A stretch of 64,000 nt of DNA from an uncultured Gemmatimonadales bacterium (lineage in GTDB: Bacteria > Gemmatimonadota > Gemmatimonadetes > Gemmatimonadales > JACORV01): contig CAWETG010000010.1 of NCBI GenBank assembly GCA_963812035.1, positions 323,534-387,533 of the forward strand, written 5' to 3'. The notes below the pieces were generated by a model, which saw only the letters and a list, made by a program, of their open reading frames with translations, was not told the DNA's origin and did not search any database. Positions 6,578 to 60,812 of the stretch are shown one piece after another. Position 1 is the first letter of the stretch. Each line of letters opens with the position of its first letter. The position numbers and the translations under genes are program-made.

Positions 6578-7617
6578 GCCGTGCCCTCGTGCCCCTGTGC
6601 GTCCGTGCGTCCGTGCGTCTGTGCGTCTGTGCGTCCGTGCGTCCGTGCGTCTTCCCAGAACAACACCCGCTCCACCGCGACCCGCACCCGATCGCCGACC
6701 CGGGCCGCCCGGAGCGGGGCCTGCACGTCGAACACCACACCCGCGCCGGCGTCGACCGTGAAGTACGCCTGAGCGCCGACGAACCGTCGCTCGGTGACCA
6801 CGCCCTCCAGCGGCGCGGGCCCGTCGGTCACGAAGCGCATGGCCTCCGGCCGCACCAGCGCCTTGGTGCCAGCCCGCCCTCCCACGCGATCCCCCGGCAG
6901 CGCGGCCGTGCGCCCCACGAAGCTCGCCACGAACGCATTGGCCGGATCGTCGTACAACTCGTCCGGCGTTCCGACCTGCTCCAGTCTCCCGAGGTGGAGC
7001 ACGGCGACCCGATCGCCGAGATCAAACGCCTCTTCCTGCTCGTGGGTCACGAACACCGTCGTAATGCCGACCTGGTGAATCGCGCGCCGCAGCTCGCGCC
7101 GGGTGCGTTCGCGCAACGCCGGGTCCAGGTTGGAGAGCGGTTCGTCCAGCAGGAGGACTCGCGGCTCGGGCGCCAGGGAGCGCGCCAGCGCGACGCGCTG
7201 CTGTTGTCCCCCGGAGAGCGCGGCCACCGGACGGCGCTCGTACCCCTCCAGATCGACCATCGCCAGCACTTCGCGCACTCGGCGAGCGGCGGCCTCGCCC
7301 TTGAGGCGCAGCCCGAAGGCGACGTTGGCCCCGACGTCGAGATGCGGGAAGAGCGCGTAGTGCTGGAAGACCATCCCAAAGCGCCGTGCCGCCGGAGCGA
7401 CGCGGGTCACCTCCTCGCCGCCGACCAGAATCGCGCCAGCGTCGGGGGTCTCGAACCCGGCAAGGAGGCGGAGCGTGGTCGTCTTCCCGCTCCCGCTCGG
7501 CCCCAGCAGCGCGAGGATCTCTCCACGGGCGACCTCGAGCGACAAGTCGTTCACGGCGACTGTCGCCTCGAAGGTCTTCCGCAGCCCGCGCAAACTGAGA
7601 TAGGGCTCGCCCATCAA
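6574..7617 (-). CDS. ABC transporter ATP-binding protein (FbpC/PotA-like) with repeat-encoded C-terminal tail
   Basis: Walker A GPSGSGKTT, signature LSGGQQQRVALAR, Walker B LLLDEP. The last ~26 aa (ARTHGRTDAQTHGRTDAQGHEGTA) are encoded by the 8-mer tandem repeat at 6581-6652. Confidence 0.9.
   Translation of the reverse strand: MMGEPYLSLRGLRKTFEATVAVNDLSLEVARGEILALLGPSGSGKTTTLRLLAGFETPDAGAILVGGEEVTRVAPAARRFGMVFQHYALFPHLDVGANVAFGLRLKGEAAARRVREVLAMVDLEGYERRPVAALSGGQQQRVALARSLAPEPRVLLLDEPLSNLDPALRERTRRELRRAIHQVGITTVFVTHEQEEAFDLGDRVAVLHLGRLEQVGTPDELYDDPANAFVASFVGRTAALPGDRVGGRAGTKALVRPEAMRFVTDGPAPLEGVVTERRFVGAQAYFTVDAGAGVVFDVQAPLRAARVGDRVRVAVERVLFWEDARTHGRTDAQTHGRTDAQGHEGTA
6581..6652. repeat. 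tandem octamer repeat (GTGCGTCC/GTGCCCCT), 9 units = 72 nt, inside CDS
   Basis: gtgccctc gtgcccct gtgcgtcc gtgcgtcc gtgcgtct gtgcgtct gtgcgtcc gtgcgtcc gtgcgtct. The length is a multiple of 3, so the frame of the ATPase tail is preserved. Confidence 0.9.
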
Positions 7618-7631
7618 CCCGTCACCTCCCC

Positions 7632-7768
7632 GGTGAAAGGTGAGAAGTGAGAGGCGAGAAGCTCTGGTGAGAGGTGAGAAGACGAAGTGAGAGGGTCTTT
7701 CCCTCTCACGCCTTTCGACCTCTCACTTCTCACCCATCCTTCTCACCTCTCACCTCTCACTTCTTACC
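7632..7768. repeat. imperfect hairpin built from tandem GTGAGAR heptamers (intra-operon, between SBP and ATPase genes)
   Basis: Left arm is ggtgaaaggtgagaagtgagaggcgagaag...gtgagaggg, loop tcttt, right arm ccctctcac...ctctcacctctcacttcttacc. The right arm overlaps the last codons and stop of the SBP gene. Confidence 0.85.
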
Positions 7769-8749
7769 TGTTCCTCGCACGTGCCGATCCCAATAATCCA
7801 TCCACGCCGCGCCGCGCGCCTCCACGCTGTCCCAGTTGACCGGCTCGACCCGCATCCGCGCCTCCACGGCGCGGGCCCACGGCGGTAGCGAATCGGCCGG
7901 CAGGTCGGTGCGTGCCGGAAGGCGAAACGCGTCGCGCGCCGCCACGATCTGCATCTCGGGCGTCAGCACCCAGCGCACGAACTCGCGCGCCAGCGCCGCG
8001 TGACGGGCCCCGCGGACCACCGCGATGGCGTCGTCGATCACCGGCGTGCCGCTGGAGGGGAACACGTAGCCGAACCTGCGGCCCTCGTGCTGCAGCAGCA
8101 GCATGTCCGGCAGGTCCCAGAGCGAGATCAGCCCCTCCCGCCGCTCGAGCATCGCGTGCAACAGCGCCGGATTCTGCACGTAGTCGCTGGTTTGCGCGTC
8201 GAGCCGGCGCAGCCACGCCCACCCGGCCGTCGTGTCGCCGGTGCGCGCCAAGCTGCGCATCATGATCATCTCGAAGATCGCACGCATCGTCCCGCTGGCG
8301 AGCGGATCGCGGATCAGGAGCTTGTCCTTCCACTGCGGCGCCAGCACGTCGTCCCAATCCGCCGGCGCCTCCGATTCCGGCACCGCGGCGCTGTTGAACT
8401 CGATCACGGCCGGCGTGCGATACACCGACAGGTAGAGCGGGCCACCGGGCGTGACCGGCTCGAGGAGCGAGTCGCGCGCCGCGCGCGCGAACAGCGGCGT
8501 CGGGCCCCCGAACCAGAGGTCCGCCTGCGGATTCGCCCGCTCGGAGCGCACGCGGTCGAGGGCCTCCTGCGACCCCATGTCGAGCCAGCGCACATCGACG
8601 CCGGGGTGCAGCGCCTCGAAGCGCCGCTCCACGAGCGACAGCAGCTCGCGGCCATGCGGAGAGTAGATGACGAGCGGCGTCCTGCCGCCCGACGAGCAGG
8701 CGCCCGCCACGACCGTCAGGCCTGCCAGCAGGGTGCGGCTACGGAACAT
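7757..8749 (-). CDS. ABC transporter periplasmic substrate-binding protein (family 1, iron(III)/thiamine-like), lipoprotein
   Basis: 330 aa. Signal/lipobox LLAGLTVVAGAC, then PLVIYSPHG...DLWFGGP, typical of FbpA/AfuA/TbpA-class binding proteins. In an operon with the ATPase and permease. Confidence 0.8.
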   Translation of the reverse strand: MFRSRTLLAGLTVVAGACSSGGRTPLVIYSPHGRELLSLVERRFEALHPGVDVRWLDMGSQEALDRVRSERANPQADLWFGGPTPLFARAARDSLLEPVTPGGPLYLSVYRTPAVIEFNSAAVPESEAPADWDDVLAPQWKDKLLIRDPLASGTMRAIFEMIMMRSLARTGDTTAGWAWLRRLDAQTSDYVQNPALLHAMLERREGLISLWDLPDMLLLQHEGRRFGYVFPSSGTPVIDDAIAVVRGARHAALAREFVRWVLTPEMQIVAARDAFRLPARTDLPADSLPPWARAVEARMRVEPVNWDSVEARGAAWMDYWDRHVRGTGKK

Positions 8750-26235: not shown

Positions 26236-27276
26236 GTGACCCGCCAGGCAGCCGCGAAGCGACGGCACGCCCTGTTCAAGGGCAAGGACTGGATCACCAC
26301 CGAGGAGTGGAGCGACCAGGAGCTTCTCACGCTGCTCGACGTCTCGGGCGACCTGAAGCGGCGCTTCAAGGAGCATCGGCCGCACCGCTGGCTTCCGGAC
26401 AAAACCATCTTCCTGATGTTCTTCGACAAGTCCACGCGGACCCGCAACTCGTTCGAGGCCGGGATCACGCAGCTCGGCGGGCACGGGCACTTCCTCACCG
26501 CCGACGCGATGCAGGTGTCGCACGGCGAGAGCCCCAAGGACACCGGCATCATCCTCTCGCGCTACGGCCACGCCATCGCGATCCGCCACGACCTGATCCC
26601 GGGGGAAGGCAACGCCTACATGCGCGAGGTCGCGAAGTGGGCGGACGTGCCCGTGATCAACATGCAGTGCGACGTGGATCACCCGTGCCAGACGCTGGCC
26701 GACCTCATGACCATCCGCGAGAAGCTGGGCTCGAACCTCGAGGGGAAGAAGCTCGCGGTGAGCTGGGCCTACGCGCCGAGCTACGCCAAGCCGCTGTCGG
26801 TGCCGCAAGGCCTGATTATGCTGATGCCGCGGTTCGGGATGGACGTGACGCTCGCCCACCCGCCGGAGTACTTCCTGATGCCGGAGACGCTCGAGGCGGC
26901 GCGCCGCAACGCGAAGCAGGCGGGCACGAAGTTCGAGGTCGTGGACGACATGGACGCGGCGTTCGCGGGCGCCGACGTGGTGATCCCGAAGAGCTGGGGG
27001 TGCCTGGAGACGATGGGAGCGAAGCCGGAGGAGTCGCTCCGCATCGCCAGGCAGTACACACGCTGGATCTGTGACGCTCCCCGGCTCGCGCGTGCCAGGC
27101 GCGGCGCGCTGTACATGCATCCGCTCCCGGCCGACCGGGGGAACGAGGTGACGGACGAGGTGATCGACGGGCCGCAGTCGGTGGTGTACGACGAGGCGGA
27201 GAACCGGCTCCACACGGCCAAGGCGATCATGGCGCTCACCATGGCCGACCAGCCGGTCGAGTACGAAGCGCCGTGA
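26236..27276 (+). CDS. ygeW: YgeW-type knotted carbamoyltransferase
   Basis: GTG 26236 (GGGAGGA upstream). STRTRNSFE, GNAYMREV, MQCDVDHPCQ, KPLSVPQG, RFGMDVTLAHP and MHPLPA match YgeW-specific blocks. Confidence 0.9.
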   Translation: MTRQAAAKRRHALFKGKDWITTEEWSDQELLTLLDVSGDLKRRFKEHRPHRWLPDKTIFLMFFDKSTRTRNSFEAGITQLGGHGHFLTADAMQVSHGESPKDTGIILSRYGHAIAIRHDLIPGEGNAYMREVAKWADVPVINMQCDVDHPCQTLADLMTIREKLGSNLEGKKLAVSWAYAPSYAKPLSVPQGLIMLMPRFGMDVTLAHPPEYFLMPETLEAARRNAKQAGTKFEVVDDMDAAFAGADVVIPKSWGCLETMGAKPEESLRIARQYTRWICDAPRLARARRGALYMHPLPADRGNEVTDEVIDGPQSVVYDEAENRLHTAKAIMALTMADQPVEYEAP

Positions 27277-28637
27277 TCATCCGGAACGCGCGGGTGGTGA
27301 CGTTCGATGGCGCCAACCGGGTGCTGGAGGGCGCGTCGGTGGAGATTGGTGCCGACGGCGCGATCAGGAGCGTGAAGCAGGGGCTAGGGACTAGGGGTGA
27401 GGGGCTAGGGGCCCTGACCCCTGACCCCCAGCCCCTAGCCCCCGCTTCTACCGTCCTCGACGCCGGCGGCCGTCTCCTCATGCCTGCCTTGATCAACTGC
27501 CACACGCATCTGTACAGCACTCTCGCCCGCGGGATCACGCTGCCGGGCCGCGCCCCCAGGAACTTCCCCGAGATTCTCAAGCAGCTGTGGTGGCGGCTCG
27601 ACCGGGCCCTCAACCCCGACGACGTTTACTACAGTGCCCTGGTTGGCCTGGTGGACGGCGCCAAGAACGGCGTCGGGACCCTGGTAGACCATCACTCGAG
27701 CCCCAACGCCTGCGCCGGGAGTCTTGATGTGATCGAGCGCGCCTTCCGTGAGGTGGGGCTCAGGGGCGTGCTCTGCTACGAGACCAGCGACCGCGACGGG
27801 CCAGCCAAGGCGCAGGCCGCGCTGGCGGAGAACATCCGCTTCATCGAGCGGACCGGCCGCGCGGGCGACGGCCTGATCGCCGCGAGCTTCGGGCTGCACG
27901 CGTCGTTCACCCTCTCGGACCGGACGCTGCGGCAGGCCGTCGAGGCCGAAGAGAGCCTCGGGGCAGGCTTCCACATCCACGTTGCCGAGGACCGATCCGA
28001 TCTCGACCATGCGCGGCGCCGCTTCAAGCAGACCGTGGTGGCGCGGCTCCGGGACCTGGGCGTGATGACCGACCGCACGCTCGCGGCCCACTGCATCCAC
28101 GTCACGTCCGGCGACGTCGCCGCGCTGGCCAGGCTCGGGGCCAACGTCGCGCACAATCCGCAGTCCAACAGCAACAACGCCGTGGGAATCGCGAAGCTGC
28201 TGGAGCTGGTGAAGGCGGGCGTGCTGGTCGGCCTCGGCTCCGACGGCTACTCTCCCCGGATGTGGGAGGAGTTCAAGACCGCCTTCCACCTCCAGAAGGT
28301 GCGTACCGGCGACCCGCGCGTGGGCTATGCGGAGGCCTACGCGGCGGCGTTCCTGAACAACCGCGCGATCGCGAAGAAGCTGTGGGGGATGGAGATCGGC
28401 CGCATCGAGGCCGGGGCGCGGGCGGACCTCATCCTGGTGGACTACTACCCGCCGACCCCGCTCGACGCGCACAACCTGTCCGGGCACCTGCTGTTCGGCA
28501 TCGCCAACGCGCCGATCGACACGCTGATCGTGGACGGCCGCGTGGTACTCAGGGACAAGCGCTGCGTCACCGTGGACGAAGCTGCGGTGGCCGAGCGCGC
28601 CACCCGACAAGCGAAGGCACTATGGCAACGGTTCTGA
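27273..28637 (+). CDS. ssnA: SsnA-family aminohydrolase
   Basis: GTG 27273 overlaps the ygeW stop (GTGA). PALINCHTHLYS, LWWRLDRAL, VDHHSSP, HIHVAED and GSDG blocks match SsnA. Contains the in-frame repeat hairpin at 27380-27443. Confidence 0.85.
   Translation: MIIRNARVVTFDGANRVLEGASVEIGADGAIRSVKQGLGTRGEGLGALTPDPQPLAPASTVLDAGGRLLMPALINCHTHLYSTLARGITLPGRAPRNFPEILKQLWWRLDRALNPDDVYYSALVGLVDGAKNGVGTLVDHHSSPNACAGSLDVIERAFREVGLRGVLCYETSDRDGPAKAQAALAENIRFIERTGRAGDGLIAASFGLHASFTLSDRTLRQAVEAEESLGAGFHIHVAEDRSDLDHARRRFKQTVVARLRDLGVMTDRTLAAHCIHVTSGDVAALARLGANVAHNPQSNSNNAVGIAKLLELVKAGVLVGLGSDGYSPRMWEEFKTAFHLQKVRTGDPRVGYAEAYAAAFLNNRAIAKKLWGMEIGRIEAGARADLILVDYYPPTPLDAHNLSGHLLFGIANAPIDTLIVDGRVVLRDKRCVTVDEAAVAERATRQAKALWQRF
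27380..27443. repeat. GGGGCTA-type inverted tandem-repeat hairpin inserted in frame in ssnA
   Basis: The G-arm ggggctagggactaggggtgaggggctagggg is followed directly by the C-arm ccctgacccctgacccccagcccctagcccc. It translates as GLGTRGEGLGALTPDPQPLAP. Confidence 0.85.
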
Positions 28638-50163: not shown

Positions 50164-50267
50164 CGGGGAGGTGAGAAGGTGATGCATGTGATGAGGTGAC
50201 GAGGTGAGTTGCGCGCACCATCATCACCTCCTCACATCATCACCTCCATCACTTCATCACCTCCCCG
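50164..50267. repeat. hairpin of tandem GGTGAKGA-type repeats between convergent genes (putative bidirectional terminator)
   Basis: cggggaggtgagaaggtgatgcatgtgatgaggtgacgaggtgag ... tcatcacctcctcacatcatcacctccatcacttcatcacctccccg. It has the same base (CGGGGAGGTGA...TCACCTCCCCG) as 51044-51166. Confidence 0.8.
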
Positions 50268-51043: not shown

Positions 51044-51166
51044 CGGGGAGGTGATGACGTGATGAAGGAGATGAGGTGATGATGTGAGACGGCGCATCAT
51101 CACTTCATCACATCATCACTTCATCACTTCATCACATCATCACTCCATCACTTCATCACCTCCCCG
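51044..51166. repeat. hairpin of tandem GTGATGA/CATCACTT repeats downstream of the M28 peptidase gene
   Basis: cggggaggtgatgacgtgatgaaggagatgaggtgatgatgtgag ... (atcatcacttcatcac)n ... cttcatcacctccccg. The right arm has roughly twice as many units as the left. Confidence 0.8.
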
Positions 51167-56461: not shown

Positions 56462-56527
56462 GGGGGCTAGGGGCTAGAAACGTGGCGCCGCATACGCCTA
56501 GCCCCTAGCCCCTAGCCCCTAGCCCCT
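56462..56527. repeat. GGGGCTA / TAGCCCC inverted tandem-repeat hairpin between convergent genes
   Basis: gggggctaggggctag - 20 nt loop - ctagcccctagcccctagcccctagcccct. Two units on the left and four on the right. Confidence 0.85.
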
Positions 56528-58938: not shown

Positions 58939-59279
58939 GGCGAGTCCCCGGAACGCGCCGCCGCGCACCGAGGGCAAGGACAGATGTCGAGCAGATACTC
59001 CCACGGATAGATGCCCGTGTCGTGGCCGTCGCTCCACGAAAAGTGGACGGCGTACGAGCCCACCAGCCTCAGGTCGAGCGCGCGGACCTCGTCCGGCACA
59101 CCCTGCGCATCCAAGGTCGGCCGCCCGCTGATCTCGTCCCGGCAGCTGGCGCACTGGCAGGCCAGGCGCAATTCCCGCGCGCCATAGACACCCACGTGCC
59201 CGTCCTCATCCCACTCGATCTGAATGGCCGCTCCGTGATCGAGCCGGCGGATCAGGTGCGGAACGGGGATCTGCTTCAC
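58935..59279 (-). CDS. DUF971 domain protein (gamma-butyrobetaine hydroxylase N-terminal-like)
   Basis: This is the last 114 aa of track ORF 58935..60932. GTG 59279 overlaps the upstream stop (GTGA). LRLACQCASC...VGSYAVHFSWSDGHDTGIYPWEYL is the DUF971 signature. Confidence 0.75.
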   Translation of the reverse strand: MKQIPVPHLIRRLDHGAAIQIEWDEDGHVGVYGARELRLACQCASCRDEISGRPTLDAQGVPDEVRALDLRLVGSYAVHFSWSDGHDTGIYPWEYLLDICPCPRCAAARSGDSP

Positions 59280-60109
59280 GGTTCCCGCCCCTGGGGCACC
59301 TGCCCCACCGTGCCCCCGTGCGTCCGTGCCCCTGTGCCTCCTGTCTTCGTGCCTCTGTGCTCCTGTGCCCCCGTGCCCCCTGTCAGTATCGGTTCCAGCA
59401 CCCGCCACACGTTGTCTGCCACGATCCGGTCTCCGGCCGCGGTAGGATGAATGCCGTCGGCCTGATTGAGGGAATCCACGCCCCCCACGCCCTCGAGCAG
59501 GAACGGGATGAGCGCGAGATGCTCGCGCGCAGCGAGGTCGCGGTACAGCGCGCGAAACTGGGCGGCATAGCGCAGCCCAAGATTCGGCGCCGCTTCCATT
59601 CCGGCAAGCACGATCGTCACGCCCGGATCGGCCACGCGGGCGCGCCGCACGATGGCCTCGAGGTTGGCGCGGGTCGAGTCGAGGTCGAGTCCGCGCAGCA
59701 TGTCGTTGGCGCCCGTCTCCACCACCAGCACGGCGGGCCGGTCGTGCAGCACCCAGTCGAGCCTGCGCAACGCCCCGGCGCTCGTCTCCCCGCTCACGCC
59801 CGCATTGACGGACCGCCATGGCAGCTTCAAGCTGTCGAGCTTGCGCTGGACGACGGCAGGAAAGGCCTGGTCCGGATCGAGGCCGAGTCCAGCGGTAAGG
59901 CTGGTGCCGAGAAAGACCACAAGATGGGTGTAGGGTGTAGGGGGTAGGGTGTGTGCAACACCCGAGTCGGCGGCAGGCGTCACGCCGCGGGAGGCCTGTT
60001 CCACAGCGGCACCGGCGCTCAGGCCCCGGGCCTTGGATCCCGCGCCCCGCCCGCAGCCCCCGAGCAGGACAACCACAGCGCCCGCGGCTATCATTCGCCT
60101 CATGCTCAT
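59276..60109 (-). CDS. SGNH/GDSL arylesterase-lysophospholipase (TesA-like) with repeat-encoded tail
   Basis: FLGTSLTAG (GDS-like block I), NAGVSGETS, ETGANDM and ADGIHPT blocks. Divergent from a ybbA/ybbP-like pair, as in E. coli tesA. The C-terminal ~35 aa are encoded by an octamer repeat. Confidence 0.85.
   Translation of the reverse strand: MSMRRMIAAGAVVVLLGGCGRGAGSKARGLSAGAAVEQASRGVTPAADSGVAHTLPPTPYTHLVVFLGTSLTAGLGLDPDQAFPAVVQRKLDSLKLPWRSVNAGVSGETSAGALRRLDWVLHDRPAVLVVETGANDMLRGLDLDSTRANLEAIVRRARVADPGVTIVLAGMEAAPNLGLRYAAQFRALYRDLAAREHLALIPFLLEGVGGVDSLNQADGIHPTAAGDRIVADNVWRVLEPILTGGTGAQEHRGTKTGGTGARTHGGTVGQVPQGREP
59296..59384. repeat. GTGCCCCC/GTGCGTCC octamer tandem repeat in the 3' end of the SGNH hydrolase CDS
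   Basis: ...ccgtgccc ccgtgcgt ccgtgccc ctgtgcct cctgtctt cgtgcctc tgtgctcc tgtgcccc cgtgcccc ctgtc; translated (minus strand) as GGTGAQEHRGTKTGGTGARTHGGT. Confidence 0.8.
59926..59956. repeat. GGGTGTA-type G-tract repeat inside the SGNH hydrolase CDS
   Basis: gggtgtagggtgtagggggtagggtgtgtgc has four G-runs of at least 3. It encodes HTLPPTPYTH on the minus strand. Confidence 0.7.
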
Positions 60110-60812
60110 CGCTCACAACCTCACCAAGACTTATACGAGCGGCGGTCGCCCGCTCACGGTGCTCAAGGAAGTTACCCTCGAAGTCGAGGCCGGTGGATTC
60201 CTGGCGATCGTCGGCCCCTCGGGCTGCGGCAAGACGACGCTGCTGGGCCTCCTGGCGGGACTCGACACGCCCAGTGGCGGCACCGTGCTGCTCGGCGGCC
60301 AGGAGCTGTCCGCGCTCTCCGAGGATGGCCGCGCCAGGCTGCGGGGCGAGAAGGTGGGCTTCGTCTTCCAGACCTTCCAGCTCATCCCCACGCTCACGGC
60401 GCTCGAAAACGTGCAGGTGCCGTTGGAACTGGCGGGCGGACGCACGGGGGCACGGGGGCACGGGGGCACGAGCTACCGCGAGATCGGCGAGCGGGCACGG
60501 GAGCTGCTGGCGCGGGTTGGGCTGGAGGGGCGCGAGCACCACTACCCGGCGCAGCTCTCCGGTGGCGAGCAGCAGCGGGTCGCGATCGCCCGCGCCTTCG
60601 TCAACCGCCCCGCCATCCTGTTCGCCGACGAGCCGACCGGCAACCTCGATGCGGAAACGGGCGCGCGGATCATCGACTTGCTGGACGCCCTGAACCGTGA
60701 GTCGGGGGCCACCATCGTCCTGGCCACCCACGACGCGGACCTGGCCGCGCGGGCCAAGCGCACCCTGCACCTGCTCGACGGTGCCGTCGCGCAGGACAGC
60801 GCGCGCGGATGA
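60102..60812 (+). CDS. ybbA: ABC transporter ATP-binding protein (YbbA/LolD-like)
   Basis: Track ORF 59949..60812 trimmed to ATG 60102. GPSGCGKTT, LSGGEQQRVAIARA and LFADEPTGNLD. It carries an 8-codon repeat-encoded insertion. Confidence 0.9.
   Translation: MLIAHNLTKTYTSGGRPLTVLKEVTLEVEAGGFLAIVGPSGCGKTTLLGLLAGLDTPSGGTVLLGGQELSALSEDGRARLRGEKVGFVFQTFQLIPTLTALENVQVPLELAGGRTGARGHGGTSYREIGERARELLARVGLEGREHHYPAQLSGGEQQRVAIARAFVNRPAILFADEPTGNLDAETGARIIDLLDALNRESGATIVLATHDADLAARAKRTLHLLDGAVAQDSARG
60441..60470. repeat. GGGGCACG octamer x3 in frame inside the ABC ATPase
   Basis: cgcacggg ggcacggg ggcacggg ggcacg encodes RTGARGHGGT, between the Q-loop region (ENVQVPLELAG) and ...ERARELLARVGL. Confidence 0.85.

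Follow-up and report, generated by a model that had tools for sequence, protein, structure and literature searches.

How does a palindrome of tandem heptamers come to lie in frame inside the gene of a conserved enzyme, and does it serve that gene? This question was raised by a 64,000-nt stretch of DNA (hereafter the window; C10:323534-387533) from an uncultured Gemmatimonadales soil bacterium with a genome of 3.31 Mb and 70% G+C. The gene, ssnA, contains a 75-nt hairpin of GGGGCTA-type units. Its source genome is referred to as G000 and the congeners as G001 to G012, giving 13 genomes in the genus. Our reading, which we hold to be probable, is that the ssnA hairpin is a tolerated passenger of a dispersed heptamer-hairpin family, sitting in a dispensable loop with its arms repeatedly rewritten, and is not a dedicated regulator of ssnA. 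Family membership, position in the protein, removal of stop codons, the indel, and turnover of units at a fixed site are directly supported. The gene and the parts of the element are as follows.

27273-28637, forward strand: ssnA coding sequence, 454 amino acids (NCBIfam profile match, open reading frame)
27374-27448, forward strand: whole palindromic element, 75 nt or 25 codons' worth, ssnA residues 34/35-59 (inverted repeat, RNA fold, reading frame)
27374-27378, forward strand: left outer stem GAAGC, pairing with GCTTC at 27444-27448 (fold, flank enrichment)
27380-27411, forward strand: G arm, GGGGCTA GGGACTA GGGGTGA GGGGCTA GGGG, with five G-tracts (sequence, Tandem Repeats Finder)
27412-27443, forward strand: C arm, CCCTGAC CCCTGAC CCCCAGC CCCTAGC CCCC (sequence, Tandem Repeats Finder)
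27444-27448, forward strand: right outer stem GCTTC (fold, flank enrichment)

The two inverted-repeat arms (27374-27410 and 27412-27448) were 37 nt each and 84% complementary. The RNA fold of the element reached -60.9 kcal/mol (z -5.7), and none of 200 shuffled sequences was as stable. Tandem Repeats Finder placed an array of 4.9 copies with a 7-nt period at 27379-27412, and arrays of the complementary units with the same period at 27412-27443. The motif GGGGCTAGGG, with at most one mismatch, had 20 occurrences in the window where 5.5 would be expected; none of 100 shuffles gave as many, and its matches clustered at 27380-27442, 56463-56526 and 63377-63450. An earlier note on this DNA had claimed that the GGGGCTA/TAGCCCC hairpin of the intergenic sites also occurs inside ssnA, which is borne out by the motif enrichment, the inverted repeat and the fold. 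The extent it gave, 27380-27443, is right for the repeat arms but too short for the whole element, which runs from 27374 to 27448 with its GAAGC/GCTTC outer stem. Because of its five G-tracts (G3-4, with loops of 3-4 nt), the G arm fits the sequence motif of a putative G-quadruplex. A scan against Rfam returned only sub-threshold matches of the element, to generic eukaryotic microRNA-precursor hairpin models (highest score 45.6 bits, cut-offs 47-168), and a known RNA family was ruled out, as all matches were below the gathering score. Neither an intrinsic terminator nor a promoter was found in the region, and the hairpin has no terminator-like tail.

In the ssnA frame, the element is read without a stop codon as KQGLGTRGEGLGALTPDPQPLAPA. 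As the earlier note had claimed, no frame of a pure (GGGGCTA)n array stays free of TAG for more than 21 nt, and the same applies to (TAGCCCC)n. The sense-strand frames of the element contained 0 (ssnA frame), 3 and 4 stops, and one antisense frame was also stop-free; the further claim that exactly one frame is kept open is thus correct for the sense strand and wrong overall. Both TAG codons that a consensus element would place in the ssnA frame have been replaced, at these positions:

27399-27401, forward strand: codon GAG where the consensus third unit puts TAG in the ssnA frame (consensus comparison)
27429-27431, forward strand: codon CAG where the consensus unit puts TAG in the ssnA frame (consensus comparison)

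At these two codons, the ssnA orthologue of G006 had CAG and CAA. Since G000 and G006 both lack the two in-frame TAGs, the stop-free state is older than the split between them. Among the intergenic GGGGCTA hairpins of G000, 25 of 27 were closed in all six frames.

The position of the element in the protein was examined on an AlphaFold2 model of SsnA built from 43 orthologues, with a mean predicted local distance difference test score (pLDDT) of 92.1 and a predicted template modelling score (pTM) of 0.91. Residues 39-58 were the sole segment with pLDDT below 50. In the N-terminal beta-sandwich, they connect strands 30-35 and 61-63 and precede the strand bearing H77 and H79. The element encodes residues 35-59, and the low-confidence segment is therefore the element's own peptide; a variable loop ahead of the HxH motif, as previously proposed, is what the model shows. 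The element is thus predicted to form a floppy, disordered and structurally dispensable surface loop, with a Gly-rich and then a Pro-rich peptide.

The loop was measured between two anchors at 41 orthologous ssnA loci. All 10 loops of at least 27 residues carried strong hairpins (z -4.3 to -7.1), and none of the 29 loops of 11-24 residues gave a fold signal (z -1.5 to +1.5). Only the C arm was retained at the ssnA locus of G011, and G007, in which the gene is frameshifted and the site was read directly, was the eleventh hairpin bearer. The loop of G001 and G002 had 14 residues (AFVGETAAAAPSEE) against 29 in G000, a gap of 45 nt, and 27 nt of unrelated GC-rich sequence stood there in place of about 72 nt. 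The alignment shows that the segment is an indel, with loops 15 residues shorter in G001 and G002 and of 11-24 residues in 29 others. The tolerance of the loop, which the earlier note had assumed, agrees with this wide length variation and with the disorder in the model. An assembly artefact was ruled out by same-site hairpins with contiguous conserved flanks in metagenome-assembled genomes from several independent projects. Four of the long-loop loci were acidobacterial:

L027, L029, L036 and L051, about 100-300 nt past the start: acidobacterial loop hairpins (fold, genome matches)

These hairpins were strong (z -5.0 to -7.1) and unrelated to that of G000, and their palindromes were dispersed repeats of their own genomes, with 67 matches in the L027 genome and 75 in the L051 genome. 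In two phyla, palindromic repeats have therefore come to occupy this loop of SsnA.

Within the genus, eight of ten ssnA orthologues carried a hairpin at this site, in four different units:

G000 and G006: GGGGCTA (or GGGGTTA)
G012 and G005: GGGTGTA
G009: GGGGTCC
G007 and G008: GGTGGGT-type
G011: C arm only
G001 and G002: no hairpin

The seven full hairpins shared one common consensus stem, in which 14 of 26 pairs were changed on both sides yet still paired, and none of 500 shuffles reached any of five measures of arm covariation. Counted per genome as 18-mers with at most one mismatch, the units were distributed as follows:

GGGGCTA: 132 in G000, 73 in G004, 0 in G012, G005, G009 and G001
GGGTGTA: 138 in G012, 21 in G009, 14 in G000
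GGGGTCC: 17 in G009, 0 in G000

By this census, the unit at the ssnA site was mostly that of the family abundant in the same genome. Unit type did not follow the ssnA tree, in which G006 (GGGGCTA) and G008 (GGTGGGT) were sisters with 97% support, and the hairpin-less G001 and G002 grouped with G009 with 100% support. As only these two nodes are well supported, loss of the hairpin in G001 and G002 and independent gain are equally parsimonious. We favour common ancestry of the site hairpins in G009 and G000, which is suggested by CCCCTGACCCC units common to the two. The C arm of G009 was a hybrid: two G000-like CCCCTSA units lay in the loop, and the CCCCGGA units after them base-pair with its new G arm, which shows that units have been turned over in place.

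In the genome of G000, we identified 114 arm matches, about 32 paired GGGGCTA-type hairpins and, with its several unit types taken together, about 90 tandem-unit hairpins, mostly non-coding. Outer-stem motifs were present on the left of 12 of 34 copies and on the right of 15 of 34, against about 6% at random positions, and purine-rich AAG-type left flanks were enriched in the GGGGCTA family. The ssnA copy is a bona fide member of this dispersed family. Seven hairpins were read in frame within genes clearly identified by Pfam, every one in a loop or linker; these counts within coding sequences were corrected by hand, since the ssnA copy fell outside both the filter based on third-position G+C (near gene start) and the regular-expression classifier (variant units).

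In-frame hosts in G000: SsnA, MFS transporter (central loop), radical-SAM protein (two linkers), asparaginase II, TypA (domain linker), DnaE2-like polymerase (HhH domain)

Switching of units was also seen at two intergenic sites, in the TypA loop, and in a radical-SAM linker:

56463-56527, no strand: intergenic GGGGCTA hairpin; six congeners with GGGGCTA, GGGTGTA or GGTGGGT units at the orthologous site
63377-63458, no strand: intergenic GGGGCTA hairpin; orthologous hairpins in eight congeners (nine genomes), of four unit types
G000:C9:186709-189837, reverse strand: radical-SAM/DUF2344 fusion gene, with two in-frame GGGGCTA hairpins in different inter-domain linkers

At the first of these sites, the unit was GGGGCTA in G000 and G004, GGGTGTA in G005 and G012, and GGTGGGT-type in G010, G007 and G003. 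At the second, the sisters G001 and G002, whose genomes are both about 98% complete, differed (GGGTGTC versus GGGGCTA/GGGGTTA). One linker of the radical-SAM/DUF2344 protein contained a hairpin in all 10 species recovered, in four or five unit types, and the other contained one in some species and was empty (14-17 nt) in four. TypA/BipA of G000 had a GGGTGTA hairpin in the linker between the G domain and domain 2, and its peptide, GVGGRVSGV..TPSHPTP, was that of SsnA in G012. The TypA copy of G010 was decaying, G001 and G002 had a GGTGTCA hairpin, G005, G008 and G006 had a long loop without a fold, and G012 had a short loop. Alleles without a hairpin were seen at ssnA in G001 and G002, at radical-SAM linker 1 in four species and at TypA in G012, and their boundaries were fuzzy. 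No target-site duplication of the kind expected of a miniature inverted-repeat transposable element was visible at these alleles; a parent insertion sequence was not searched for. A system of repetitive extragenic palindromes (REP) with REP-associated tyrosine transposases (RAYT) was ruled out, because the Y1/RAYT transposase domain PF01797 turned up in none of the genus's 13 genomes, with a control search positive in 6 of 14 well-known genomes.

The passenger reading would involve the following steps. Selection on the host gene would act as a filter, so that copies within genes last only in loops or linkers, at lengths that preserve the frame, and with in-frame TAGs mutated. Time and again, replacement or homogenisation would bring the arms into line with the unit family that abounds in the genome concerned, and replacement or homogenisation of the whole palindrome would keep the arms complementary with no selection on RNA structure required. 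Turnover may proceed via ectopic conversion between copies sharing long unit arrays, or via template switching between arms or between hairpins; slippage within arms may add to it, and the effect on fitness is presumably near neutral. The ssnA hairpin is absent in two species (G001 and G002) and half-deleted in one (G011), and similar copies in TypA have decayed; it is therefore dispensable, which argues against an indispensable role. The earlier note had proposed that the element inserted into, or expanded within, a tolerant loop and was then purged of stops. The tolerant loop, the indel and the replacement of TAG codons stand, but a single insertion followed by purging is incomplete, as the unit has been replaced several times.

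Several points weigh against this reading. Retention of the hairpin at the ssnA coding site in 8 of 10 species, and in the radical-SAM linker in 10 of 10 species seen, goes beyond simple neutral decay. A clean empty site or a target duplication was sought at ssnA and not found, and insertion of the element in one piece is thus at most a possibility. G009 has more GGGTGTA (21) than GGGGTCC (17) in a census that did not include GGTGGGT-type units, and the ssnA gene tree within the genus is weakly resolved, with two nodes well supported. Finally, it is possible that the hairpin (-60 kcal/mol) or a G-quadruplex in the mRNA affects translation of ssnA.

This last point leads to the view that the hairpin, or a G-quadruplex in its G arm, is a selected cis-regulatory RNA acting through ribosome pausing early in ssnA, mRNA stability, or the output of downstream genes, with the structure selected and the sequence drifting. 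The strong fold, the five G-tracts on the sense strand, the complementarity retained in seven orthologues with 14 compensatory pairs, and the overlap of ssnA with both neighbouring genes would all fit such a role, and G-quadruplex formation in vitro is documented for this repeat class (PMC4692102). We nevertheless consider it unlikely. Whole-palindrome replacement explains the covariation equally well, the hairpin is missing in G001 and G002 and halved in G011, and neither a terminator-like tail nor a match to a known RNA family is present. Further, like hairpins occur in unrelated genes and between genes, following the repeat family of the genome and not the host gene, and the TypA copies decay while the loop length stays.

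It is quite improbable that replication slippage built the repeat on the spot out of ordinary coding sequence, with no insertion or copying from another place and with its likeness to the intergenic hairpins due to shared mutational bias. The copy has a family-type outer stem, and about 30 intergenic copies have exactly its two-arm palindromic layout; the sisters G001 and G002 differ at shared sites by replacement of the whole element, loops included; and genome-specific units at many unlinked sites are not derivable from independent local slippage. These observations stand against the slippage-prone nature of heptamer arrays, the hybrid C arm of G009 as unit-level turnover within one site, and the target-site duplication that was not found. 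Least probable of all is an adaptive feature of SsnA, such as a flexible lid or an interaction segment, to which the DNA palindrome would be incidental. Although a loop of 27-29 residues is held at this position in eight species, its peptides differ wholly between species (GLGTRGEGLG..., GVGGRVSGV..., GSGVRGPASG..., GVGSGLWGAG...), the model shows the segment as disordered, peptides of one type recur in unrelated proteins, as in TypA of G000 and SsnA of G012, and two species do without the segment.

As an extension of the passenger reading, we tentatively put forward, as possible but rather doubtful, that the genus has an active process that holds hairpins at fixed addresses and rewrites their arms with genome-specific 7-8-nt units, without a RAYT-type transposase, in coding loops as well as at gene ends. 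Such a process would continually write Gly/Pro-rich segments into SsnA, TypA, the radical-SAM enzyme and DnaE2, and unrelated palindromes of Acidobacteriota would likewise have used the SsnA loop as a 'hairpin address'.

The ssnA element belongs to a known class of G-rich heptamer arrays and convergent pairs described in Xanthomonas, Nostoc and Geobacter, and its in-frame carriage has precedent. In two Xanthomonas genomes, 186 and 183 GGGAATC arrays were reported, with 70-75 convergent inverted pairs per genome, and the heptamer unit of Nostoc is GGGGA(C/T)T (Rehm et al. 2015, PMC4692102). The present family resembles them in having 7-nt G-rich units at about four per array, and many dispersed copies that are mostly intergenic and often form opposed pairs able to fold into stem-loops. 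Their positions are also largely common to related species, with length variation (here at ssnA, two intergenic sites, TypA and radical-SAM). It differs from Xanthomonas, where Xcc and Xac have one unit, in comprising several unit families whose unit changes between congeners at one site, and from both Xanthomonas and Nostoc in having copies in frame in conserved proteins, with stops removed, and in its phylum, Gemmatimonadota. Aklujkar et al. 2009 (PMC2700814) took the paired hepta- and octanucleotide arrays of Geobacter metallireducens to be sites bound by global regulators. These arrays are similar in having four or five tandem 7-/8-nt units per strand, hairpin-like pairs, and tens of copies, and one heptamer family among them occurs both within and between genes. 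Unlike that work, the present one analysed unit turnover by comparison, and in-frame translation. No function has been established for the Xanthomonas, Nostoc or Geobacter arrays (PMC4692102, PMC2700814).

Rickettsia palindromic elements (RPE; PMC10969869) are about 100-150 bp long, encode a conserved peptide of about 35-50 amino acids, and have no tandem units. They are likewise dispersed palindromes in frame in unrelated housekeeping genes, translated at fold-compatible positions. The ssnA element differs in its microsatellite-like arms, which consist of tandem heptamers within a total of 75 nt and change in sequence from one species to another. The two appear analogous and not homologous, set apart by architecture and host phylum. 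The cyanobacterial short tandemly repeated repetitive (STRR) heptamers, named for Calothrix in PMC4692102, are tandem and genome-dispersed; unlike the present hairpins, they are not reported to form site-conserved hairpins that swap units in coding loops. As an overall result, a fixed address combined with genome-specific rewriting of units that reaches coding loops was not found in the literature searched.

REP and bacterial interspersed mosaic elements (BIME), reportedly described by Gilson et al. 1987 and Nunvar et al. 2010, are short GC-rich palindromes at gene ends, with species-specific sequences and RAYT transposases. The hairpins of the genus share with them the GC-rich palindromes, the species-specific sequence and some common positions, and differ in having arms made of tandem repeats and in that some are translated, which REPs reportedly are not as a rule.

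These results imply that a non-triplet microsatellite palindrome can persist long inside conserved enzymes, and they show in a concrete case how DNA that is selfish or driven by mutation may lengthen and diversify protein loops; in the decayed TypA copies, the loop length has outlasted the hairpin. Four unit types occupy one codon-level position in ten species, and whole elements have been replaced between sisters that are about 6% diverged. Homogenisation of dispersed short hairpins is a process unexplained for this repeat class in any organism. In annotation, hairpins of this sort within genes risk being misread as regulatory RNAs, as frameshifts or as repeats between genes.

The host gene itself was assigned with confidence. 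The open reading frame at 27273-28637 (forward strand) aligned end to end with the NCBIfam SsnA profile NF005540 (504.7 bits, cut-off 444) and with TIGR03314 (495.4 bits, cut-off 455.5), and the HxH metal motif was present, with H77 and H79 invariant in 43 orthologues. The GTG start codon shares bases with the stop codon of the carbamoyltransferase-like gene upstream (GTGA), and the ATG of the downstream gene, encoding a pyridoxal-phosphate (PLP) enzyme, is located at 28622, 16 nt inside the 3' end of ssnA. Because ssnA overlaps both neighbours, the remark in the earlier note on coupled genes downstream fits the sequence. The neighbours were YgfK-like, YgeW/ornithine-carbamoyltransferase-like, cysteine-synthase-like (PLP enzyme) and XdhC-like, all four below the equivalog cut-offs. 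The ssnA genes of the genus branched from within Acidobacteriota sequences, at 65-72% identity and with a clade support of 100%, and other genera of the same family had no ssnA, only distant amidohydrolase paralogues, which together suggest that ssnA or its cluster may have been acquired horizontally by the genus.

Tandem-unit arrays were also found elsewhere in the window. The ABC-transporter ATPase-like open reading frame at 59949-60812 (forward strand) contained a single-arm GCACGGGG octamer array at 60442-60470, read in frame as GGRTGARGHGGT, and its congeners had other arrays or unrelated sequence of 14-56 nt at this site. In the SGNH/GDSL hydrolase-like open reading frame at 59276-60109 (reverse strand), arrays were located at 59926-59952 and 59308-59384; a GGGTGTA array in the N-terminal region is read as HTLPPTPYTH, and a CCGTGCCC-type array encodes the C-terminal tail. 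Further tandem-unit hairpins of other families were present at 6579-6651, 7632-7769, 50167-50264 and 51049-51159, with the units GTGCGTCC, GGTGAGA and GTGATGAN, and the GTGATGAN hairpin family had conserved ends (ACGGGGAGG...CCTCCCCGT). The GTGATGA octamer family comprised 36 copies genome-wide; each of them is closed in every one of the six frames, and all lie outside coding sequence. In addition, hybrid hairpins at G000:C10:158409-158483 and G000:C1:539132-539242 had arms or successive units from different octamer subfamilies (GGGGCACG versus GACGCACG), and by their composition look like intermediates of unit turnover.

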